64,000 nucleotides of DNA from Eledone cirrhosa (GCA_964016885.1 OZ024742.1:351354001-351418000), one strand, 5' to 3'. Positions 3,938 through 61,858 are shown, counted from the stretch's first letter. Notes: generated by a model not told the origin, from the sequence alone. Made by a program: numbers and translations.

Positions 3938-3970
3938 ACGACGTTTCGGGCATAAGCCCTTCCTCAGGTG
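3938..3970 (-). ncRNA. Minimal hammerhead ribozyme of the PLE terminal repeat
   Basis: Minus strand reads CTGAGGA AGGGC TTAT GCCC GAAAC GTC, with a loopless stem III as in PLE minimal HHRs. Stem I is weak. Confidence 0.75.
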
Positions 3971-5459: not shown

Positions 5460-7225
5460 CTAAAGGAATAAGGGTGGGGAGTTCAGGCCGGGGGGAGTGT
5501 GGGTCAGTAAGATGAAGATGGTTCTTTGTTCGACTCTAAGGAGATTGGCGTGTGTTCCGTGGAATTGGAGTAGGCCACAGACTGTGAGATGGCGTGCGTA
5601 ATGTCCAGGGGCAACAAAGTGGCGGGCGATGGGGGAACTACCACCGAGACGAATATCCCAGAGGTGCTCAGTGAATCGGTCCGCCAGGCGGCGCCCCGTC
5701 TGTCCGATATAAGTCGGGTGAGAGCGGTGTGGACGAGAGAGAGGGTAACCTCTGCGGATGAAATGGCTGACTAGGGAAAGGGCCTGGGACTCGAAGTCAG
5801 CATCTCGGCTACAGAGGCGGCGGATCCTGAGGAGTTGGGAGTAGGGAATAGAGTGTTTAGTGTGTGGGGGTGGGAAGAGGGGAAGTCGAGGTAAGAGTGG
5901 GAGTCAATTGGTTTGAAGAAGGCGGAGGTGACGATGGATTGGTGGGAAGGGTCGAAGGCGACGGAGATGTCTAAGAAATGGACGTGGGTGGTGGAGATAG
6001 AGGTGGTGAAGTGGAGGGAGGCGTGGGAGGTGCAGAAGACGGAGAAAAAGGAGTCGAGCTGTTCTCGGGTGAGGATCCTGGCTCCGATACATCGTCAATG
6101 TAACGACCGTACAGTTCGGGCGTGGGGCCGGTGTACTGGGCAAAGATTTGGGCCTCAACATGGCCAACAAAAAAGGTTGGCATAGTTCGGGCCCATTCAT
6201 GTACCCATGGCTATACCCGTGACCAGTTGGTAAAACTCACCCGAGAAGGAGAAACAGTTGAGGGTGAGGACCAGCTCGGCGAGGCGAAGGAGGGTGGAGG
6301 TGGAGGGAATGGGGGAGGGGCGAAGGTCGAGGTAGAGTTTGAGGGCGCGTAGGCCGTCGACGTGGGGGATGACGGTATAGGGGGACTTGATGTCTAGGGT
6401 GAAGAGGAAGGGCTGTGGGCCGGGTGGGTAGGTGAAGGAGTCGAAAAGGCGCAGGGCGTGGTTGGTGTCGGAGATGTGGGAGGGGAGGGTGGTGACAAGG
6501 GGGGCGAGGATGGAGTCAAGAAAGGCGGAGATGAGTTCGGTGGGGCAGTTGCAAGCGGAGACGATGGGGCGGCCGGGGTTGTCGGGTTTGCGGAGTTTGG
6601 GGAGGAAGTAGATGGTGGGGGTGCGGACGATGAGGTGGGAAGCAGTGGGGGGGGGGGGGGGGGTAGGAGGAGGAGGCGACAACGTCTTGGTTGGTGGAGG
6701 AAACTTGTTGTTGGTAGAGAGGTGTGGGATCGGAGTGTAGAGGGCGGTAGAAGAGGGGTTTACAGAGCTGCCTGAGAGCTTCGGCCGTGTAGAGGTCTGC
6801 GCGCCACACCACCACGGCGCCTCCCTTGTCCGCCGGTTTGATGACGATGTCATCTCGGCTACGGAGGGATCGGAGAGCGAGGAGTTCACCCCGTGAGATA
6901 TTGTACCGTTTGGAACGGTGGCGGAAGTCGAAACGATTTACTGCGCTACTGCTGGCATCGACGAACGCGTCCAGGGTGCTAAATTGCCCTGGTGCCGGCG
7001 TCCAAGAAGATGGTCCTCGACCCAGGTGGGGAAACGGGTCTGGGGCGTCCGGAGCCGGTGGCGGTTGGCCGAAATGTGGCTGTAGCTTCGTGCGTCGCAC
7101 GAATCGCTCGACTTCCATTCGGGTGCCAAACTCGTCGCTGTGCGGAGTGTGGGGTATGAAGCGAAGGCTTCTACTAAGGAGTGAGCGCTCAGGTGCGGAG
7201 AGGGGGAGGTCAGGGTGTATCTGAG
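5460..7225 (-). pseudogene. PLE reverse transcriptase + GIY-YIG endonuclease, frameshifted
   Basis: Across frames: IKPADKGGAVVVW, PGRPIVSAC, FTLDIKS, GIAMGT..GPNYANLF, RYIDD, SIPYSQLLRIRRLCS, RRGYP, then YIGQTGRRLADRFTEHL...PPGLN and a stop at ~5460. Confidence 0.92.
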
Positions 7226-8419
7226 ACAAGTTATTCATATGTGACCTGTTTACGACCGGAATTCGTTAGCAACGAAAACCTGTTTCATGTGATTCAATTA
7301 TTTCTATTGTTTCAACGTTTTAGATCAAATATATGATAACATTCGATATATCAAAAGATAATAGAAATGCTACATACATAAATTATACAATTCAGTGAAG
7401 TAAACTGTGATCGGGATGATAGGATTAAATAACAAAAACATATAATCGATAAATTTGATTGTAATAGGTTTGGTATGTTAGTAAATAGATATATATATAC
7501 ACACATACACGCCAAATGTACATACACATATGCTCAATTTTATTATCTCTGGAAAAGTTTCAAAGAACAGAAGATTATCGGTGATCACTCATAATTCATG
7601 TTTTATTTTGTATATGGTGGATCAGAAAATAAAACTCTATCTTCGCTGACCGAATGAATGGTAAACGAGTTTAGCGTCGTACTTTATAATCTGGACAGCG
7701 CCGGAATGTCTTAAATTGAGACGCGATTTTACAAGTGTACTAGGATTCACGAAGTACACTTATTGAAGGCTTAAACGACCTTCTACATTGATATTCTAAC
7801 CCTAAAATTATGTATTCTTCCATAACTTAGGGAAGGGAAATTATTTCTGCCTAGTACTGAGGTGGACTTATATGTAGGGAAATAGGAAGATAGTATTGCC
7901 CCAATACAACTGATTTCTACATTTAATTTCCAGTTCCATCGCAACGCGTCAGCAATTCTGTCTTGCCTTCAATTCCAATTTATTATCTTTCTATTTCAAA
8001 TATGTTTTTGGAAAATCTTTGCTACCTATATGCAAATACGAGTAACAGCGAGGGACACACATACAAACGATATAATAACTCAAATTATCTTCTGCCTTCA
8101 AACTAAATATTAATGTGGTCAACTTTCTCTCACGAGTCTGATGTCTGTCGAATAAAAATAAGTAATTCTGCTTGGAGGAAAATTTATATATATGCTGTTA
8201 ATTTAAATATTTTTGTTTACGATCTGAAAATAATTAATTGTTATCACATTTGTAGAGCATATTAATCTGTTCTATCATTTAGACAGCTCTCAACTGTATG
8301 CAGGGATTCAATAAGTACAAGATCCCGAAGCATTGTATTAGTGAATCTAACATAAGGAAGATACAGAGAAAACTTAATTCTAGATAATATTTAGAAGAAA
8401 GATCTTGAATAAACCGAAC

Positions 8420-9236: not shown

Positions 9237-9283
<47 letters not shown>

Positions 9284-9570
9284 AAATAACGAAACGAAAT
9301 TAAATTTCGTTTCGCTTCTAACTCACTTTTGTATGACTGACGCTTAAATAATTAAGTTAAAAGTGTACATCTACATATGTATACGGAAATATTAGTATGC
9401 ATAAAAATACACACATGTATACATATGTACATGTACTGAGTTTTTCACTGGACACTTTACTGTGAGTGTCCAGCTAGTCTGTATGTAAACAAACAGACAA
9501 ACCGGGTTTTAGAGTCATACGGGTTTTCAAGGAAACACATTTCCTCTATTCTCCAGAGAGCCAGACAGGA

Positions 9571-9613
9571 ATATTGGACTAGTTTCGATGTTATTACATC
9601 TCATCAGCAATAT
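9571..9613 (-). ncRNA. Type I hammerhead ribozyme
   Basis: Reverse complement of 10093-10135. Confidence 0.9.
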
Positions 9614-10092
9614 AAACCCATCTTCCGGCTTCTCTAGAGAATCGTAAAAGCACATATCGTTATATGCTTTTTCTATGAAAATTAGTAGTGGGCAGACTAA
9701 TTTGCATAGAACGTGAGTCATTGTACAAACCCGGTTTGTCTGTTTGTTTACATACAGACTAGCTGGACACTCACAGTAAAGTGTCCAGGGAAAAACTCAG
9801 TACATGTACATATGTATACATGTGTGTATTTATATGCATACTAATATTTCCGTATACATATGTAGATGTACACTTTTAACTTAATTGTTTAAGCGTCAGT
9901 CATACAAAAGTGAGTTAGAAGCGAAACGAAATTTAATTTCGTTTCGGTATTTGTTTTTATCGTTTCCGCTGAACCGGTGCGTACAATGACTCACGTTCTA
10001 TGCAAATTAGTCTGCCCACTACTAATTTTCATAGAAAAAGCATATAACGATATGTGCTTTTACGATTCTCTAGAGAAGCCGGAAGATGGGTG

Positions 10093-10135
10093 ATATTGCT
10101 GATGAGATGTAATAACATCGAAACTAGTCCAATAT
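10093..10135 (+). ncRNA. Type I hammerhead ribozyme, canonical core, GUC site
   Basis: ATATTG CTGATGA GATGT AATA ACATC GAAAC TA GTC CAATAT. Stem I can extend via TCTCTAGAGAAGCCGGA/TCTGGCTCTCTGGAGA. Confidence 0.92.
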
Positions 10136-10232
10136 TCCTGTCTGGCTCTCTGGAGAATAGAGGAAATGTGTTTCCTTGAAAACCCGTATGACTCTAAAAC
10201 CCGGTTTGTCTGTTTGTTTACATACAGACCAG

Positions 10233-10323
<91 letters not shown>

Positions 10324-45490: not shown

Positions 45491-48400
45491 CATAGAATAT
45501 TCGAAAATATTCTGTATGTTTATAATAAACATTTTGAAGACCTAATCGCTATAGAATAGAATACGTCACGTATTACAATTAGATTCTCGATAAAAGCAAG
45601 GGAAGTAATCTACGCGTTTCATTCTTGTTAGAAATCATCAGGACTACATATCCAGTGCTTTTATCGAGAATGACACAGCTAGAGACTTATAGAATACTTA
45701 GCTGTGTACAGGAACTGGTTTGAAAGAGCGGTTGCCGGTCCGGCAGAAATTAGAAATTGGAATAAATGCTCTGAAATAGCGATATATATGTGAATATAGA
45801 CATAGAATATTCGAAAATATTCTGTATGTTTATAATAAACATTTTGAAGACCTAATCGCTATAGAATAGAATACGTCACGTATTACAATTAGATTCTCGA
45901 TAAAAGCAAGGGAAGTAATCTACGCGTTTCATTCTTGTTAGAAATCATCAGGACTACATATCCAGTGCTTTTATCGAGAATGACACAGCTAGAGACTTAT
46001 AGAATACTTAGCTGTGTACAGGAACTGGTTTGAAAGAGCGGTTGCCGGTCCGGCAGAAATTAGAAATTGGAATAAATGCTCTGAAATAGCGATATATATG
46101 TGAATATAGACATAGAATATTCGAAAATATTCTGTATGTTTATAATAAACATTTTGAAGACCTAATCGCTATAGAATAGAATACGTCACGTATTACAATT
46201 AGATTCTCGATAAAAGCAAGGGAAGTAATCTACGCGTTTCATTCTTGTTAGAAATCATCAGGACTACATATCCAGTGCTTTTATCGAGAATGACACAGCT
46301 AGAGACTTATAGAATACTTAGCTGTGTACAGGAACTGGTTTGAAAGAGCGGTTGCCGGTCCGGCAGAAATTAGAAATTGGAATAAATGCTCTGAAATAGC
46401 GATATATATGTGAATATAGACATAGAATATTCGAAAATATTCTGTATGTTTATAATAAACATTTTGAAGACCTAATCGCTATAGAATAGAATACGTCACG
46501 TATTACAATTAGATTCTCGATAAAAGCAAGGGAAGTAATCTACGCGTTTCATTCTTGTTAGAAATCATCAGGACTACATATCCAGTGCTTTTATCGAGAA
46601 TGACACAGCTAGAGACTTATAGAATACTTAGCTGTGTACAGGAACTGGTTTGAAAGAGCGGTTGCCGGTCCGGCAGAAATTAGAAATTGGAATAAATGCT
46701 CTGAAATAGCGATATATATGTGAATATAGACATAGAATATTCGAAAATATTCTGTATGTTTATAATAAACATTTTGAAGACCTAATCGCTATAGAATAGA
46801 ATACGTCACGTATTACAATTAGATTCTCGATAAAAGCAAGGGAAGTAATCTACGCGTTTCATTCTTGTTAGAAATCATCAGGACTACATATCCAGTGCTT
46901 TTATCGAGAATGACACAGCTAGAGACTTATAGAATACTTAGCTGTGTACAGGAACTGGTTTGAAAGAGCGGTTGCCGGTCCGGCAGAAATTAGAAATTGG
47001 AATAAATGCTCTGAAATAGCGATATATATGTGAATATAGACATAGAATATTCGAAAATATTCTGTATGTTTATAATAAACATTTTGAAGACCTAATCGCT
47101 ATAGAATAGAATACGTCACGTATTACAATTAGATTCTCGATAAAAGCAAGGGAAGTAATCTACGCGTTTCATTCTTGTTAGAAATCATCAGGACTACATA
47201 TCCAGTGCTTTTATCGAGAATGACACAGCTAGAGACTTATAGAATACTTAGCTGTGTACAGGAACTGGTTTGAAAGAGCGGTTGCCGGTCCGGCAGAAAT
47301 TAGAAATTGGAATAAATGCTCTGAAATAGCGATATATATGTGAATATAGACATAGAATATTCGAAAATATTCTGTATGTTTATAATAAACATTTTGAAGA
47401 CCTAATCGCTATAGAATAGAATACGTCACGTATTACAATTAGATTCTCGATAAAAGCAAGGGAAGTAATCTACGCGTTTCATTCTTGTTAGAAATCATCA
47501 GGACTACATATCCAGTGCTTTTATCGAGAATGACACAGCTAGAGACTTATAGAATACTTAGCTGTGTACAGGAACTGGTTTGAAAGAGCGGTTGCCGGTC
47601 CGGCAGAAATTAGAAATTGGAATAAATGCTCTGAAATAGCGATATATATGTGAATATAGACATAGAATATTCGAAAATATTCTGTATGTTTATAATAAAC
47701 ATTTTGAAGACCTAATCGCTATAGAATAGAATACGTCACGTATTACAATTAGATTCTCGATAAAAGCAAGGGAAGTAATCTACGCGTTTCATTCTTGTTA
47801 GAAATCATCAGGACTACATATCCAGTGCTTTTATCGAGAATGACACAGCTAGAGACTTATAGAATACTTAGCTGTGTACAGGAACTGGTTTGAAAGAGCG
47901 GTTGCCGGTCCGGCAGAAATTAGAAATTGGAATAAATGCTCTGAAATAGCGATATATATGTGAATATAGACATAGAATATTCGAAAATATTCTGTATGTT
48001 TATAATAAACATTTTGAAGACCTAATCGCTATAGAATAGAATACGTCACGTATTACAATTAGATTCTCGATAAAAGCAAGGGAAGTAATCTACGCGTTTC
48101 ATTCTTGTTAGAAATCATCAGGACTACATATCCAGTGCTTTTATCGAGAATGACACAGCTAGAGACTTATAGAATACTTAGCTGTGTACAGGAACTGGTT
48201 TGAAAGAGCGGTTGCCGGTCCGGCAGAAATTAGAAATTGGAATAAATGCTCTGAAATAGCGATATATATGTGAATATAGACATAGAATATTCGAAAATAT
48301 TCTGTATGTTTATAATAAACATTTTGAAGACCTAATCGCTATAGAATAGAATACGTCACGTATTACAATTAGATTCTCGATAAAAGCAAGGGAAGTAATC

Positions 48401-49388
48401 TACGCGTTTCATTCTTGTTAGAAATCATCAGGACTACATATCCAGTGCTTTTATCGAGAATGACACAGCTAGAGACTTATAGAATACTTAGCTGTGTACA
48501 GGAACTGGTTTGAAAGAGCGGTTGCCGGTCCGGCAGAAATTAGAAATTGGAATAAATGCTCTGAAATAGCGATATATATGTGAATATAGACATAGAATAT
48601 TCGAAAATATTCTGTATGTTTATAATAAACATTTTGAAGACCTAATCGCTATAGAATAGAATACGTCACGTATTACAATTAGATTCTCGATAAAAGCAAG
48701 GGAAGTAATCTACGCGTTTCATTCTTGTTAGAAATCATCAGGACTACATATCCAGTGCTTTTATCGAGAATGACACAGCTAGAGACTTATAGAATACTTA
48801 GCTGTGTACAGGAACTGGTTTGAAAGAGCGGTTGCCGGTCCGGCAGAAATTAGAAATTGGGATAAATGCTCTGAAATAGCGATATATATGTGAATATAGA
48901 CATAGAATATTCGAAAATATTCTGTATGTTTATAATAAACATTTTGAAGACCTAATCGCTATAGAATAGAATACGTCACGTATTACAATTAGATTCTCGA
49001 TAAAAGCAAGGGAAGTAATCTACGCGTTTCATTCTTGTTAGAAATCATCAGGACTACATATCCAGTGCTTTTATCGAGAATGACACAGCTAGAGACTTAT
49101 AGAATACTTAGCTGTGTACAGGAACTGGTTTGAAAGAGCGGTTGCCGGTCCGGCAGAAATTAGAAATTGGAATAAATGCTCTGAAATAGCGATATATATG
49201 TGAATATAGACATAGAATATTCGAAAATATTCTGTATGTTTATAATAAACATTTTGAAGACCTAATCGCTATAGAATAGAATACGTCACGTATTACAATT
49301 AGATTCTCGATAAAAGCAAGGGAAGTAATCTACGCGTTTCATTCTTGTTAGAAATCATCAGGACTACATATCCAGTGCTTTTATCGAG
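45491..49388 (-). ncRNA. 13 tandem type I hammerhead ribozymes (minus strand, 310-bp period)
   Basis: Each unit contains GTAATCTACGCGTTTCATTCTTGTTAGAAATCATCAGGACTAC, the reverse complement of the HHR core. Confidence 0.9.
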
Positions 49389-49392
49389 TGTC

Positions 49393-49481
49393 ATTCTCGA
49401 TAAAAGCACTGGATATGTAGTCCTGATGATTTCTAACAAGAATGAAACGCGTAGATTACTTCCCTTGCTTTTATCGAGAAT
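49393..49481 (+). ncRNA. Type I hammerhead ribozyme (first of 12 plus-strand copies, 310-bp period)
   Basis: ATTCTCGATAAAAGCA ctggatat GTAGTC CTGATGA T TTCT AACA AGAA T GAAAC GC GTA GATTAC ttccct TGCTTTTATCGAGAAT. Predicted cleavage is after 49453. Confidence 0.92.
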
Positions 49482-52400
49482 CTAATTGTAATACGTGACG
49501 TATTCTATTCTATAGCGATTAGGTCTTCAAAATGTTTATTATAAACATACAGAATATTTTCGAATATTCTATGTCTATATTCACATATATATCGCTATTT
49601 CAGAGCATTTATTCCAATTTCTAATTTCTGCCGGACCGGCAACCGCTCTTTCAAACCAGTTCCTGTACACAGCTAAGTATTCTATAAGTCTCTAGCTGTG
49701 TCATTCTCGATAAAAGCACTGGATATGTAGTCCTGATGATTTCTAACAAGAATGAAACGCGTAGATTACTTCCCTTGCTTTTATCGAGAATCTAATTGTA
49801 ATACGTGACGTATTCTATTCTATAGCGATTAGGTCTTCAAAATGTTTATTATAAACATACAGAATATTTTCGAATATTCTATGTCTATATTCACATATAT
49901 ATCGCTATTTCAGAGCATTTATTCCAATTTCTAATTTCTGCCGGACCGGCAACCGCTCTTTCAAACCAGTTCCTGTACACAGCTAAGTATTCTATAAGTC
50001 TCTAGCTGTGTCATTCTCGATAAAAGCACTGGATATGTAGTCCTGATGATTTCTAACAAGAATGAAACGCGTAGATTACTTCCCTTGCTTTTATCGAGAA
50101 TCTAATTGTAATACGTGACGTATTCTATTCTATAGCGATTAGGTCTTCAAAATGTTTATTATAAACATACAGAATATTTTCGAATATTCTATGTCTATAT
50201 TCACATATATATCGCTATTTCAGAGCATTTATTCCAATTTCTAATTTCTGCCGGACCGGCAACCGCTCTTTCAAACCAGTTCCTGTACACAGCTAAGTAT
50301 TCTATAAGTCTCTAGCTGTGTCATTCTCGATAAAAGCACTGGATATGTAGTCCTGATGATTTCTAACAAGAATGAAACGCGTAGATTACTTCCCTTGCTT
50401 TTATCGAGAATCTAATTGTAATACGTGACGTATTCTATTCTATAGCGATTAGGTCTTCAAAATGTTTATTATAAACATACAGAATATTTTCGAATATTCT
50501 ATGTCTATATTCACATATATATCGCTATTTCAGAGCATTTATTCCAATTTCTAATTTCTGCCGGACCGGCAACCGCTCTTTCAAACCAGTTCCTGTACAC
50601 AGCTAAGTATTCTATAAGTCTCTAGCTGTGTCATTCTCGATAAAAGCACTGGATATGTAGTCCTGATGATTTCTAACAAGAATGAAACGCGTAGATTACT
50701 TCCCTTGCTTTTATCGAGAATCTAATTGTAATACGTGACGTATTCTATTCTATAGCGATTAGGTCTTCAAAATGTTTATTATAAACATACAGAATATTTT
50801 CGAATATTCTATGTCTATATTCACATATATATCGCTATTTCAGAGCATTTATTCCAATTTCTAATTTCTGCCGGACCGGCAACCGCTCTTTCAAACCAGT
50901 TCCTGTACACAGCTAAGTATTCTATAAGTCTCTAGCTGTGTCATTCTCGATAAAAGCACTGGATATGTAGTCCTGATGATTTCTAACAAGAATGAAACGC
51001 GTAGATTACTTCCCTTGCTTTTATCGAGAATCTAATTGTAATACGTGACGTATTCTATTCTATAGCGATTAGGTCTTCAAAATGTTTATTATAAACATAC
51101 AGAATATTTTCGAATATTCTATGTCTATATTCACATATATATCGCTATTTCAGAGCATTTATTCCAATTTCTAATTTCTGCCGGACCGGCAACCGCTCTT
51201 TCAAACCAGTTCCTGTACACAGCTAAGTATTCTATAAGTCTCTAGCTGTGTCATTCTCGATAAAAGCACTGGATATGTAGTCCTGATGATTTCTAACAAG
51301 AATGAAACGCGTAGATTACTTCCCTTGCTTTTATCGAGAATCTAATTGTAATACGTGACGTATTCTATTCTATAGCGATTAGGTCTTCAAAATGTTTATT
51401 ATAAACATACAGAATATTTTCGAATATTCTATGTCTATATTCACATATATATCGCTATTTCAGAGCATTTATTCCAATTTCTAATTTCTGCCGGACCGGC
51501 AACCGCTCTTTCAAACCAGTTCCTGTACACAGCTAAGTATTCTATAAGTCTCTAGCTGTGTCATTCTCGATAAAAGCACTGGATATGTAGTCCTGATGAT
51601 TTCTAACAAGAATGAAACGCGTAGATTACTTCCCTTGCTTTTATCGAGAATCTAATTGTAATACGTGACGTATTCTATTCTATAGCGATTAGGTCTTCAA
51701 AATGTTTATTATAAACATACAGAATATTTTCGAATATTCTATGTCTATATTCACATATATATCGCTATTTCAGAGCATTTATTCCAATTTCTAATTTCTG
51801 CCGGACCGGCAACCGCTCTTTCAAACCAGTTCCTGTACACAGCTAAGTATTCTATAAGTCTCTAGCTGTGTCATTCTCGATAAAAGCACTGGATATGTAG
51901 TCCTGATGATTTCTAACAAGAATGAAACGCGTAGATTACTTCCCTTGCTTTTATCGAGAATCTAATTGTAATACGTGACGTATTCTATTCTATAGCGATT
52001 AGGTCTTCAAAATGTTTATTATAAACATACAGAATATTTTCGAATATTCTATGTCTATATTCACATATATATCGCTATTTCAGAGCATTTATTCCAATTT
52101 CTAATTTCTGCCGGACCGGCAACCGCTCTTTCAAACCAGTTCCTGTACACAGCTAAGTATTCTATAAGTCTCTAGCTGTGTCATTCTCGATAAAAGCACT
52201 GGATATGTAGTCCTGATGATTTCTAACAAGAATGAAACGCGTAGATTACTTCCCTTGCTTTTATCGAGAATCTAATTGTAATACGTGACGTATTCTATTC
52301 TATAGCGATTAGGTCTTCAAAATGTTTATTATAAACATACAGAATATTTTCGAATATTCTATGTCTATATTCACATATATATCGCTATTTCAGAGCATTT

Positions 52401-53036
52401 ATTCCAATTTCTAATTTCTGCCGGACCGGCAACCGCTCTTTCAAACCAGTTCCTGTACACAGCTAAGTATTCTATAAGTCTCTAGCTGTGTCATTCTCGA
52501 TAAAAGCACTGGATATGTAGTCCTGATGATTTCTAACAAGAATGAAACGCGTAGATTACTTCCCTTGCTTTTATCGAGAATCTAATTGTAATACGTGACG
52601 TATTCTATTCTATAGCGATTAGGTCTTCAAAATGTTTATTATAAACATACAGAATATTTTCGAATATTCTATGTCTATATTCACATATATATCGCTATTT
52701 CAGAGCATTTATTCCAATTTCTAATTTCTGCCGGACCGGCAACCGCTCTTTCAAACCAGTTCCTGTACACAGCTAAGTATTCTATAAGTCTCTAGCTGTG
52801 TCATTCTCGATAAAAGCACTGGATATGTAGTCCTGATGATTTCTAACAAGAATGAAACGCGTAGATTACTTCCCTTGCTTTTATCGAGAATCTAATTGTA
52901 ATACGTGACGTATTCTATTCTATAGCGATTAGGTCTTCAAAATGTTTATTATAAACATACAGAATATTTTCGAATATTCTATGTCTATATTCACATATAT
53001 ATCGCTATTTCAGAGCATTTATTCCAATTTCTTATG

Positions 53037-53128
<92 letters not shown>

Positions 53129-57793: not shown

Positions 57794-59725
57794 AATGAAT
57801 AATAACAGGTAGACATCATAAAAAGGTAATTTATTCCGTGTGCTTACAAATGTTTCCACGGTGGTACTACAGCCTAGTTATGCTAAGTGCAAATTTACAA
57901 CTATTTGCAGAACTCAAATATCCAATGCTGTGACCACTGTATCCTCAGAGCAGAATGGTAAAATGTACAATGTAAATACCCTTAAGTGGGGTTGTTGGGG
58001 AAGATAGAGTAGAAAAGGAAGAGAGAAAAGTAGGGGAGAGGGAGAGAGAGAGAAATATATGCAGGGGTTGGAGAAGTAGGAGAGAGTGGTTTGTAGATAT
58101 CTTAATCAAAATGTTATGGTAGGGCTTTATTATGCTGGTTACTTTTGGAGAGATGCGTTGATAGTTAAGGTCTGAATTATTTATTGCCCCAGAGGGCAGG
58201 TTCATATATGTAGAGAGGGAGGTAGGCCAAAGGCGAGAGAGAGAGAGGGAGTGTAATGGATGTAGACAGAGAGGTAGAGAGGGGACAGACGAAGTTTATG
58301 TGGTGAGTGAACTTTGGGTTTGTAGTAGTAATCTGCGAATTGCACAGAGTTACCATTTATAGTGATAAGCAGTCTATTGTATTGTAGTGTGGGGGAAGAG
58401 AAGGTGGTTAGCTAGAAAGCGATGTTATAGTTACGGGTTCGAATGTTAAGTTATTTTATAGTGAGAGAATTTAGCTTTTAGCTTTTAGTTTGTGGTTGCA
58501 GTATAATGGTCGTTCAATTCTATCAGAAAGTAGTTTGTTTTTGGATTTTAATATGTAAAAGAGTTCAAGGTTACATAACCTGCAGTACTTTAATCCACTC
58601 CGATATGCACTTGCGCTGAAAATATATCCCATTTTAAGGTGAACTGTTGGTTGCGTTCACGGAGTTGCCAGGTCTTGTTGGCGAGCGTGGTCACAAAACG
58701 GTGATTAGGATGTTTGATTGAGAATCGATAACGGTACCAGCGAGATTTAAACGAGGTGGTGGTAGATCCGATATAATACCATTTCTGGTCGTTCGATTCA
58801 ACCGTGCATTGGTAAACAATGTTGGACTTTAGGCATTCATTCTTCAATGGACATCTTTCAGGTAGATGGCAGTTACATTCTTTGTTGTGGGTAGCGGGTA
58901 TACCATGGACAGGTTGTGATAGCAGTGCAGGTGGATTGTGTAATACCCGTCTCCCATTTAGTGGTTGGGAGGCAGATATTACGTTCTGCCCATCTATTAC
59001 TAAAATGTTTTGTTTTGTAGAGTTGTTTAATTGCCTTAAGGTAAGTTTTTTTTAATGTATGCTTCAAGGTTTGGTGCCGTGGAGTATGATAGTCTAATAG
59101 TTTTAGATTTCAGAATGTTGCTGTATTTATGGGAACTAGGGAAATGTTTGTTGATTAACTTAAAGAATGAAAGAGATAGTTTTGTAGTAATCGAGGCATT
59201 AAAAATAGGATTGTACCAGTTATACTTTCTACAACGTGATTTATTTGGTGGTGATTTTCTATTATTAGTATGTCTGGTAGTATAGTGTGTGTGTGCTTGT
59301 ATTTTAGTCCCCCGGTTACGTATTCCTTGATTTCGTGTAGAGCTATGTGTGTTATGGACATTCCTATCAATGTATTCTATTGTATCCCGGTGGTCGGCAT
59401 TCCTTAATGCATTATTGTAGTATTCAGCGTGTTCACTAAAAATATCAGAGTTAGACGATAGACGAGAGATTCTAAGAGAAATACTCCGGGGAACCGATTT
59501 GATCATGGAGAGTGGGTGGTTAGAGTTAAAGTTAATATACGTAATGTTCTCATTCATCTTGTGGAAGGGTAGTATCTGTCCGGTATTTAAATTAAGAGTT
59601 ACGTCCAGAAAGTTTACTACTTTAAGATTGTATTTGTATGTTATTTTTAGACCCAGTTCACTAAAAGATTTTCTAATATTTTTCCGTAGCCTTTCAAGAT
59701 TTTGGTTATTCAAGTTATTAACTAA
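57790..59725 (-). mobile_element. Naiad-like PLE, 5' truncated (RT C-terminal half, GIY-YIG, UTR, HHR)
   Basis: VNFLDVTLNL, SNHP, WYNP, IRLSYS..PN, CNC...CPL..ECL..NIVY.C..YYIGST..FKSRW, CRLC. Frameshifts are present. Confidence 0.9.
57841..57952 (-). ncRNA. Type I hammerhead ribozyme with ~85-nt branched stem II
   Basis: TGCT CTGAGGA TACAGTGGT..ACAGC...GCTGT..ACCACCGTG GAAAC ATTT GTA AGCA. Confidence 0.78.
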
Positions 59726-59741
59726 ATATATATATATATAT

Positions 59742-61858
59742 AAAATCAGGTGGCGAGCATTCCACTTTGATAAATCTAATATAAATGAAAATGTCTCGGA
59801 CTTAAACAAAGTTTTCAAATCCAAAAGAAATCCACCCCCCAACAAACTTTTATCTGACTTTGAAAACGATATAATTTCTATCATACAAGGAGTCAAATTT
59901 AAGAGAAACTTCAAAGACCAGGAATATCTGAAAGGCATTAGGGATAATATTGAGAACTTGGAGAAAACTGAGAAGATCTTGGTAAAATCTGACAAGACCA
60001 ACAACCTCTATGGAGTGCAGAAAGACATGTATAATGGCCTCATACTAAAAGAACTGAGGAAAAAGTACAAGGTAACAGATAAGGCCGAGCTACAGAAAAT
60101 GAATGTTGAGGCATCTTGTATAATGCACGAGTTGGAAATCGAGAACAGAACACAACCTTTCGTGCCCAGGAAACCGAAGATCAATATGAAAGATCATAAG
60201 AGAAATTTCGAGAATGACTTGCCAGTCAGATTGATTGCACCATCAAAATCGGACCTGGGTAAACTAAGCAAAAACATTCTTGACAGGGTGATACAGCAAA
60301 TTAAAAACTTGGGTTGTTTACCTAACCTGAGCTTGTGGAAGGGAACTGGTGAGGTTGTTGAGTGGTTTAAGCAAATTAAATATAACAATAATAATAAGTT
60401 TATTCAACTTGATATTGCTAACTATTATTCTTCCATTACCCCTAATCTACTAAATAAGGCACTAAATTACGCATTCAAACATACAGACCTAACTAGCAAT
60501 GAAATGCACATTATATTATCGGCTAGGAAAACATTGATAGAATTTAATGACCAACTATGGACCCGAGCAGATAGAGATAACAATTTTGACATTACTATGG
60601 GATCATCCGACTCAGCTCAGGTAACTGACCTTGTGGGCTTATTTTTAATCAATTCGCTGCATAGGAAAATACCTGGTACTACCGGAGGTTTATATAGAGA
60701 TGACATGCTTTTACTTATTGATAATAATAACTCTGAACTAAATAGAAAAAGAAAACAAATTACACAATTGTTTAATCACTTTAATCTAAAAATAGAAATT
60801 GAGAATAGCCATAGAATAGTCAACTTCCTAGATATAACATTAAATCTCAACACATGTCTTCACTATCCATTTCACAAATTGAATGAAAACTTAAACTATG
60901 TCAGCTTTAACTCTAACCACCCCAAATCCGTTAAAAACACTATAGTAAACTCTGTTCAATCACGTATCTCTAGAATCTCATCTAATAAAAAGATTTTCGA
61001 CGAAAAAGCCCATTATTACAATGAAGCGTTAGCTAGAGCAGGATATAGTGATAAAATTATGTACATAGATAATGATAAACAAATTAAACAAAATAACAAC
61101 TGTTTTAATTATGGCCACAACCTTAACAACTATAATAGAAAGCATTACAATAATTCCAAAAGCCATAAAAGAAATAGAACTAGGAATATAATATGGTTTG
61201 CCCCCCCCCCCCCCTTCTCACTAAACATTAAAACCCACATTGCTAAACAATTTTTTAAAGCTCTCGATAATCGCTTCCCGAGAACACATAGGTATCACTC
61301 AATTTTCAATAGACATACTATAAAATAACCTACTCATCCACCAAAAATTTAGCGCAAAATATTAATAGAATAAATAACAGGAACTTAAAACCTAGCGATA
61401 ATAGCATAAATAATATACAAGTTAACAAATGTAACTGTAGAGATAGATCTAAATGTCCGTTAAATAACAACTGCTTAGTTAAAAATATAATATACAACTG
61501 TAATGTTAAAACGGACGTTAATTCTTTTAACTACGTTGGTTCTACATCGACGGAATTTAAACTTCGCTATAACAACCACAAGAATTCTTTCACAGATCCA
61601 TCCCAAAAATCTTCAACAGCACTATCAGGCGTACTCTGGCAACTTAGGCATGATAACGTTAGATATTCGACGACTTGGAATATAGTTTCAAGGGGGATTC
61701 CTTTTAATTCATCCTCTGAGACATGTGACCTCTGTGCGGAGGAGATATTCTTTATACTAAAATCTAAAAATTCCCTTAATCTACGGACAAATTTATTCAG
61801 TTGCTGCAGACATAGATTGAACTCAACGTTTAAATATAAATTTAAATTTAAAATGTAA
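59742..61858 (+). pseudogene. Naiad-like PLE RT + C-terminal GIY-YIG endonuclease, near-intact (5' truncated, one frameshift at ~61325)
   Basis: KIRWRAF, SDKTNN, KDHK, PVRLI.P, FIQLDIANYY, ITMGS, GLYRDD, VNFLD, SNHP. After the shift: CNC..CPL..CL..IIY..YVGST..FKLRYNNH..CDLC..E..LN..CRH, stop at 61858. Confidence 0.93.

Follow-up and report, generated by a model that had tools for sequence, protein, structure and literature searches.

A palindromic, head-to-head insertion form in a putative hammerhead retrozyme family of Eledone cirrhosa

Structure of the palindrome and of its repeat unit

The stretch of DNA analysed here (the window) comprises 64,000 nucleotides from Eledone cirrhosa (GCA_964016885.1 OZ024742.1:351354001-351418000) and carries a 7.5-kb palindrome built from tandem copies of a 310-nt unit. 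Positions 45752-49388 are the reverse complement of 49396-53032, a match of 3,637 bp broken by a single mismatch at 48861, and the palindrome holds 13 hammerhead cores on the minus strand and 12 on the plus strand; the near-perfect palindrome with ~3.6-kb arms and the two ribozyme counts, first proposed by a model from the nucleotide sequence (the sequence-only reading), are thus both borne out. That reading placed the start of the insertion at 45752, which is too far inward, as the whole insertion occupies 45490-53032. The left arm (45490..49388, minus strand, 3,899 bp) contains 12.6 tandem units with 13 hammerheads and extends from unit phase 187 at its outer end to phase 9 at its inner end. 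The right arm (49388..53032, plus strand, 3,645 bp) consists of 11.8 identical units with 12 hammerheads and extends from phase 1, defined as window position 49388, to phase 235 at its outer end. TRF returned a period of 310 for the arms, with 12.6 and 11.8 copies and matches of 99-100%. The mismatch at 48861 is the sole substitution among the 24 units and has no mirror change at 49923.

The arms meet head-to-head at 49388..49395, where they overlap by 1 nt of microhomology (49388; phases 9 and 1). The 7-nt spacer described by the sequence-only reading does lie between the mirrored stretches (49389-49395), but it contains no foreign sequence and is simply positions 2-8 of the right-arm unit. 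Outside the arms are two G-interrupted (TA)n tracts, at 45261..45489 and 53033..53128. On the plus strand the left tract has 15 G, the right tract has 4 G and neither has any C; because these interruptions sit on the same strand on both sides, the flanks are direct and not mirrored, and they are both halves of a single split (TA)n tract. The description of the outer flanks as unrelated therefore needs correction, although the accompanying observation that the arms end at different phases of the unit stands and is the real signature of the insertion. The last 18 nt of the left target (45472-45489) match unit phases 188-205 with three mismatches and are the likely primer-annealing stretch. A 31-mer across the head-to-head junction has one exact occurrence in the 3.0-Gb genome. 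None of the listed assembled pieces from four sequencing runs spans the joint, runs X1 and X3 each providing one 340-nt unit contig. The palindrome is confirmed in the assembly, though the unit counts per arm could be mis-assembled.

Each unit contains all the core positions, stems I-II and the palindromic stem III of a type I hammerhead, which sequence inspection and a pairing table place at 49417..49459 on the plus strand in the first plus unit. The predicted domain consists of stem I (49417-22/49454-59; phases 30-35/67-72), the core (49423-29; 36-42), stem II (49430-43; 43-56), GAAA (49444-47; 57-60) and a self-complementary 6-mer (49447-52; 60-65), with cleavage predicted after 49453 (phase 66). 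The 6-mer takes the place of a stable stem III, a dimer-type arrangement; among metazoan type I motifs, those that cleave as dimers typically have a short palindromic helix III (PMC4209133). A perfect 16-bp stem (phases 6-21/79-94; 49393-49408 with 49466-49481, plus strand) encloses the hammerhead domain in every unit. All 11 fixed substitutions found in phases 6-94 across the family preserve the core and pairing, compared with 34% expected of possible changes, a figure that is inflated by transition bias and omits a fixed 1-nt insertion near phase 68. Further along the plus strand, the region at phases about 125-240 (49512..49627) is conserved at 70-82% in related retrozyme families and contains both of the start sites discussed below, at phases 196-205 (49583-49592) and 231-235 (49618-49622).

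At its gathering threshold Rfam gave no match in the window; the unit has a weak match to HH9 (19.2 bits, E 0.055, gathering 52). No ORF of at least 130 aa was listed within the array, and Pfam searches of eight window ORFs gave nothing convincing. The tandem, non-coding units fall within the 150-400-nt range of retrozymes (310-nt period, 24 units), the structure of each includes a type I hammerhead, and the copies are dispersed and numerous, with over 1,000 ends of each type joined straight to (TA)n and hence apparently no LTR/PBS/PPT organisation. The insertion is non-coding, and so has no counterpart of the RT plus GIY-YIG ORF of an autonomous Penelope-like element (PLE). On every feature tested the unit is a non-LTR retrozyme, with ribozyme cleavage predicted. 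It was present in 20 of the 24 listed sequencing runs, spanning 17 coded organism labels, although two runs that share a label with one containing it lack it; no RNA run is listed among those that contain it, which makes this distribution uninformative on expression.

A family-wide insertion form

The family was searched in its own genome by exact patterns. An exact 37-nt hammerhead core has 4,541 occurrences, and exact end motifs running into (TA)n number 1,051 of the 231 type and 1,255 of the 196/205 type. The first 100 core matches resolved into ten arrays on contig C1, eight of which are two-armed with outer ends at phases 231-233 and 192-205. A further 60 loci were drawn by their 231 end, taking the first listed that had not already been sampled, and these yielded 52 simple two-armed insertions in 51 loci and single arms at four; the remaining loci are L078 (with a 20-nt arm), L042 (complex), L077 (whose far end lies off the stretch) and L051 and L072 (each with an arm of >7.5 kb). 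In all 53 simple cases picked in this way the far end is of the 196/205 type. Reciprocally, 20 loci drawn by a 196/205 end, and chosen for lacking an exact 231 motif, comprise 14 two-armed insertions with far ends at phases 232-237 (that of L109 adjoins a gap) and six single-armed arrays.

When the window copy is combined with the eight insertions picked by core, the 53 picked by 231 end and the 14 picked by 196/205 end, the total is 76 simple two-armed insertions in which both ends are visible. Every one of them runs minus-then-plus (head-to-head) and pairs a 231-type with a 196/205-type end, and in none are the two ends alike; 67 of these loci were chosen by one end type and all but the window lie on C1. 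Outside this set are L042 (which also contains a gap), L077, the unspanned L051 and L072, and 12 single-armed arrays, two of them next to gaps. The outer ends fall at phases 231-237 on one side and 187-205 on the other. If the two strands chose their sites independently, same-type pairs would be expected in about half of the insertions; the observed number is 0 of 76. Scaling the yield of 54-56 per 60 loci to the 1,051 ends of the 231 type gives ~950-980 two-armed insertions by extrapolation from C1, which is a lower bound because ends at 232-237 are uncounted. The shorter arm reaches at least 500 bp in 34 of 52 insertions and at least 2.9 kb in just two, and the window copy is thus among the largest. 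The sequence-only reading had treated the locus as a one-off; it is instead a large but typical member of the family, for which the head-to-head palindrome is the normal form.

The target is (TA)n at nearly all sampled loci. A target duplication, of 11-14 bp, is readable at L035 alone, being masked by the microsatellite elsewhere, including at the window, and an automated search for duplications was uninformative within such tracts. The two-armed form also occurs in related retrozyme families (L035, L074, L095 and L123), which have phases about 125-280 in common at 70-82%.

In contrast to the outer ends, which are fixed, the inner ends are random. Among 53 joints (52 plus that of the window), six are blunt, 32 have an overlap of 1-5 nt, one overlaps by 16 nt and 14 contain filler; one of the 53 (L047) uses the 16-bp stem. 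Overlaps of at least 2 nt occur at 24 of the 39 filler-free joints, where 18% would be expected (p 3e-9). Of 106 inner ends, 4 coincide with the ribozyme cut where 2.4 would be expected, which is no enrichment. The arms differ in phase by amounts scattered across the whole unit, and 4 of 53 joints lie within 8 nt of symmetry by hand count (about 2.9 expected). Because near-symmetric joints occur at chance frequency, the 7-nt spacer at the window is attributable to chance, and these joint statistics lead us to reject a special role for either the spacer or the 16-bp hairpin. Eight other head-to-head joints, with overlaps of 0-3 nt and depths of 3-13, are present in contigs of run X2, with sides of <30 nt and the run type not given. 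Mean arm lengths are 1,181 and 1,585 bp with no significant departure from an exponential distribution, and the two arms of an insertion are weakly correlated in length (rho 0.36, p 0.008). Either arm may be the longer (20 versus 32 of 52), the difference exceeding one unit in 13 and 23 cases, respectively.

Variants in the units provide a record of what each arm was copied from. At 32 loci every unit position is covered twice per arm, and at 29 of these both arms carry an identical haplotype, drawn from 18 haplotypes in all; shuffling gave a mean of 3.2 such loci and a maximum of 10 in 20,000. It should be emphasized that this sharing could be inflated by post-insertion gene conversion between the arms. 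At L066, L092, L097 and L100, variants private to the locus are fixed throughout the units of both arms. Substitutions confined to a single unit, which may include post-insertion changes and assembly errors, number 56 that are not shared between arms and one, at L068, that is. The arms differ in haplotype at 3 of the 32 loci: by one variant at L095; at L060 in all but the two innermost units; and at L087, where each arm, followed inward from its outer end, is an ordered mosaic of two haplotypes, X, X, Y. Among fixed variants there is also a weak excess of A>G changes, read on the RNA strand: of the 24 types, 8 are A>G and three T>C, compared with three and ten among single-unit variants (Fisher p 0.04). 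This could reflect A-to-I edits in the template that reverse transcription made permanent, or selection for G-U pairs, the polarity of the changes being uncertain.

Priming, template and rival explanations

The observed parts of the insertion process are the (TA)n target, two fixed outer ends each used once, random inner ends with microhomology, the haplotype common to both arms, read-through of the cut site and the target duplication at L035. A head-to-head, inverted 5'-truncated copy is present in every one of the 76 simple two-armed insertions, and a tail, corresponding to two RT start sites, is found at one end only (ends at 231-237 versus 187-205); both features are those of PLE-mobilised sequences. 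We have considerable confidence that the family is a non-autonomous retrozyme inserted by two-strand priming of the PLE type. The additional proposal that both strands were copied from a single circular template is our favoured reading, held with more reserve. A more elaborate form of the hypothesis, which we offer only tentatively, is that a dimeric PLE acts on one 310-nt circle with one start site per target strand and two RTs working at once, such that every insertion is a kilobase-scale perfect palindrome, about a thousand of these are tolerated and constitute a large source of dsRNA, and A-to-I edits on the circle become fixed in DNA.

The proposed sequence of events is as follows. Arrays would be transcribed, and the tandem hammerheads would release 310-nt monomers that are then circularised, as suggested by other retrozymes. 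A GIY-YIG/RT PLE protein, probably a dimer, may bind phases 125-240 and nick both strands of the (TA)n target; the target is evident from the insertions and the enzyme is deduced. One nicked end would anneal to the TA-like stretch at 188-205 and start at phase about 196-205, and the other would start at 231-237, some 35 nt to the 3' side, where only a few bases are homologous; the end positions are observed, and their order is the one we infer. Both RTs would then go over the same unit sequence many times before halting at random points, the simplest template for this being one circle; shared haplotypes and random stops are seen directly, and the circle is proposed to account for them. Finally, the two cDNA ends would be joined by microhomology-type end joining, in keeping with the junction statistics, and the product would always be a head-to-head palindrome with a spacer shorter than one unit. 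The twin-priming-like origin offered by the sequence-only reading, in which each strand of one (TA)n target primes a cDNA and the two are joined at their truncated ends, is therefore supported by the end phases and the joints. The same reading proposed that read-through transcription would yield kilobases of dsRNA, a possible small-RNA or ADAR substrate, and that the DNA might extrude a cruciform.

ORFs encoding RT plus GIY-YIG occur in the genome. A search of 36 GIY-YIG loci, taken from 10,597 first-look candidates, gave no partner PLE that shares the priming region; with BLAST and with a profile built from five sequences of that region, the only matches were to retrozyme relatives and none was to a PLE terminus. 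A match at L123, considered as a pseudo-LTR, was rejected, as it proved to be a small two-armed insertion of its own, lying behind the ORF within a TA tract. The truncated PLE L156 forms a 3,266-bp palindrome (99.7%) in which just one arm has a tail, of roughly 55 nt.

The main rival to the circle retains two-strand PLE priming but replaces the template with a long uncut linear multimer, or with two sister transcripts ("dual priming"). It could be argued that this accounts for the X, X, Y order in both arms of L087, for the single-unit variant shared at L068 and for the different haplotypes over most of the two arms of L060. The L087 mosaic and the L068 variant indeed mean that a single circle is insufficient unless switching was coupled. 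In addition, the in vitro reaction drew chiefly on uncut RNA (PMC11167929), and read-through of the cut site is equally compatible with either template. A linear multimer does not, however, readily explain private variants that are fixed in each unit throughout the two arms, the sharing of one single-unit variant against 56 unshared, or the arms of >24 units at L051 and L072. Moreover, random truncation can only shorten arrays, and hence an extra lengthening and homogenising step would be needed; that the fixed variants conserve ribozyme structure also counts against it. The circular template is preferred because uniform arrays of >24 units and fixed private variants are best explained by it, and we regard the linear alternative as unlikely, albeit deserving of serious consideration. 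Ribozyme-cut linear monomers were rejected as a template, since inner ends are not piled at the cut and the arrays are not mosaic.

The sequence-only reading also raised a fold-back template switch, in which a single cDNA snaps back and copies itself; in a related proposal for rotifer PLEs the antisense template self-primes. Shared arm haplotypes would be expected of such a process, the window joint, with phases 9 and 1, is close to symmetry and is located at the 16-bp hairpin, and the idea has been suggested for head-to-head PLE structures (PMC3846280). Folding of the long arm of L087 at its joint, however, predicts Y, Y, Y, and the short arm read from the joint is Y, X, X. Nor does the model fit the freedom of either arm to be the longer by more than one unit, the scatter of phase differences over the whole unit, or the unmirrored variant at 48861. 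The L087 mosaic and the arm lengths contradict fold-back, which is largely refuted and in our view very improbable. Antisense self-priming, as put forward in PMC3846280, thus fits the data less well than two primed cDNAs.

Perfect repeats and palindromes are prone to error, the window joint is bridged by no listed read or contig, and three sampled arrays (L034, L086 and L109) adjoin N gaps, all of which might suggest that fold-back chimeric reads or a mis-join of two arrays by the assembler created the structure at the window. Such errors would not, however, generate one polarity and one end of each type in 76 of 76 insertions, direct flanks, a unique junction and haplotypes that match across arms, and comparable joints exist in the contigs of run X2; the chance that the locus is an artefact is slight. 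Least probable of all is a DNA-level origin by later inversion or break-fusion of an ordinary tandem array, for although arrays with internal inverted repeats can rearrange and the L047 joint uses the 16-bp stem (1 of 53), both outer ends are of the 3' type, at fixed phases and always joined to (TA)n, and inversion within a one-direction array creates no second fixed 3' end.

Relation to known elements and implications

For metazoan non-LTR retrozymes a circRNA intermediate and mobilisation by PLEs have been proposed (PMC7229834; bioRxiv 10.64898/2026.07.22.740005), and expression and circles have been demonstrated in coral, mussel and axolotl. The family described here resembles these elements in its low-GC tandem unit of ~300 nt with one type I hammerhead each, its lack of an ORF and its dispersed arrays. 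In contrast with those retrozymes, described as simple head-to-tail arrays, it is head-to-head and two-armed with fixed paired ends. Opposite-strand hammerhead pairs have been noted in Schistosoma (PMC4209133).

EN+ PLEs are reported to have an inverted 5'-truncated copy, a 30-40-bp tail at one end and a bias for (TA)n (PMC8557442; PMC3846280). The head-to-head copy, one-end tail (here 26-35 nt or more), TA-rich targets and, at the one locus where it is readable, a short target duplication are shared with the family studied here, which differs in being a retrozyme with no ORF, in having arms that are multimers of one small unit and in the near-obligatory nature of the structure. The Anolis Poseidon PLE has been characterized in vitro (PMC11167929), where both strands are cut and extension begins at two internal sites, which delimit the tail; these sites lie downstream of the ribozyme, the RT passes the cut site and a dimer is predicted. 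According to the same source, the enzyme worked mainly on uncut RNA and did not require the ribozyme; the two strands showed no difference in start site, nor was priming homology seen. The model proposed above would parallel this system in two-strand cutting and extension, two internal start sites bounding a tail, and read-through of the cut site. In a retrozyme insertion, unlike the Anolis reaction in vitro, both sites are used, once each, and one of them is TA-like and can anneal to the target. There is also a likeness to twin or dual priming by LINE-1 (PMC2837659), in which both target strands prime and inverted cDNAs are joined with microhomology inside the target duplication. In LINE-1, however, the outcome is an occasional variant comprising two inverted fragments with an internal deletion, whereas the retrozyme arms copy the same sequence many times, from fixed starts, as a rule.

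Retrozymes and Penelope inversions are thus already known, and what appears to be new is the one-site-per-strand rule together with the evidence for a single template. Two-armed retrozyme arrays, the one-site-per-strand rule and arm haplotype sharing were not found in the literature searched, largely the main texts of openly available papers; the terms 'ribozyme' and 'palindrom' do not occur in the main text of a 2026 repeat annotation of Octopus vulgaris (PMC13282606). The origin of tandem and inverted PLE structures has been named as an open question (PMC8557442), and rival models were left undecided (PMC3846280).

The finding is the rule behind the locus, the window copy itself not being unique. 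This study ties retrozymes to PLE machinery by insertion anatomy, beyond co-occurrence or phylogeny, and the 310-nt unit offers a minimal substrate for comparing circular with linear templates. By extrapolation from C1, roughly a thousand long near-perfect palindromes are implied in one animal genome, and this is relevant to palindrome stability, dsRNA load and assembly errors. As the family is young, high-copy and naturally barcoded, it provides an in vivo record of the PLE mechanism, in which each strand receives one of two start sites and the same unit variant appears in both arms.

Two-armed hammerhead insertions within and beyond the 310-nt family

At one locus of the 310-nt retrozyme family in the same genome 272 bp of unrelated sequence (L038:3099-3370) is caught between both arms of a single insertion. 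At another (L072, contig G000:C1 about 97461504-97476481) the end motifs are separated by 15 kb and oriented as expected, which, judged from these ends, suggests a 15-kb two-armed insertion. Related retrozyme families were found at L035:9130-9963, L074, L095 and L123:2440-2870; their ribozyme domains differ from those of the 310-nt unit, the priming region (unit phases ~125-240) is kept at 70-82% identity, and the insertions are likewise two-armed with both types of outer arm end. The window itself contains a second hammerhead-bearing two-armed insertion (9276-10235), unrelated to the 310-nt family and sited between (TA)n tracts, in which the unit is roughly 460 nt long, the arms display 98% likeness and hammerhead cores occur at 9607 (minus strand) and 10099 (plus strand). 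Other families are represented by single type I hammerhead motifs at 16474, 31528, 33926 and 39245 on the minus strand and at 24287 on the plus strand, with ~200 nt of flanking sequence common to those at 16474 and 24287.

Penelope-like elements and candidate remnants

A protein-coding, truncated Penelope-like element (PLE), of the kind proposed to mobilise the retrozyme, forms a 3,266-bp palindrome (99.7%) at L156:1860-5125, its tail confined to one arm. Within the window, region 59039-61855 carries a plus-strand reverse transcriptase (RT)-like ORF of 635 aa (59421-61325), followed in a different frame by a 181-aa ORF that we take to resemble a PLE endonuclease, the PLE likeness of the region being likewise presumed, and a diverged, related minus-strand ORF lies on its 5' side; Pfam returned no match for the ORFs of this region. 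An older inverted repeat (18994-22935; ~1.8 kb per arm, arms 83%), mostly microsatellite, encloses an ORF fragment at 20575-21189 that resembles a PLE N-terminus but for which Pfam gave no convincing match. Fragmented, GC-rich minus-strand ORFs at 5463-7265 resemble a decayed PLE, and a hammerhead-like motif lies downstream at 3967.

Occurrence of the unit in public sequencing runs

Among the 24 public runs listed, the 310-nt unit was recovered near letter-for-letter in 20, which derive from 16 studies and bear 17 coded organism labels. This spread could mean that related species carry the unit, that it came in with food or as a contaminant, or that it was transferred.
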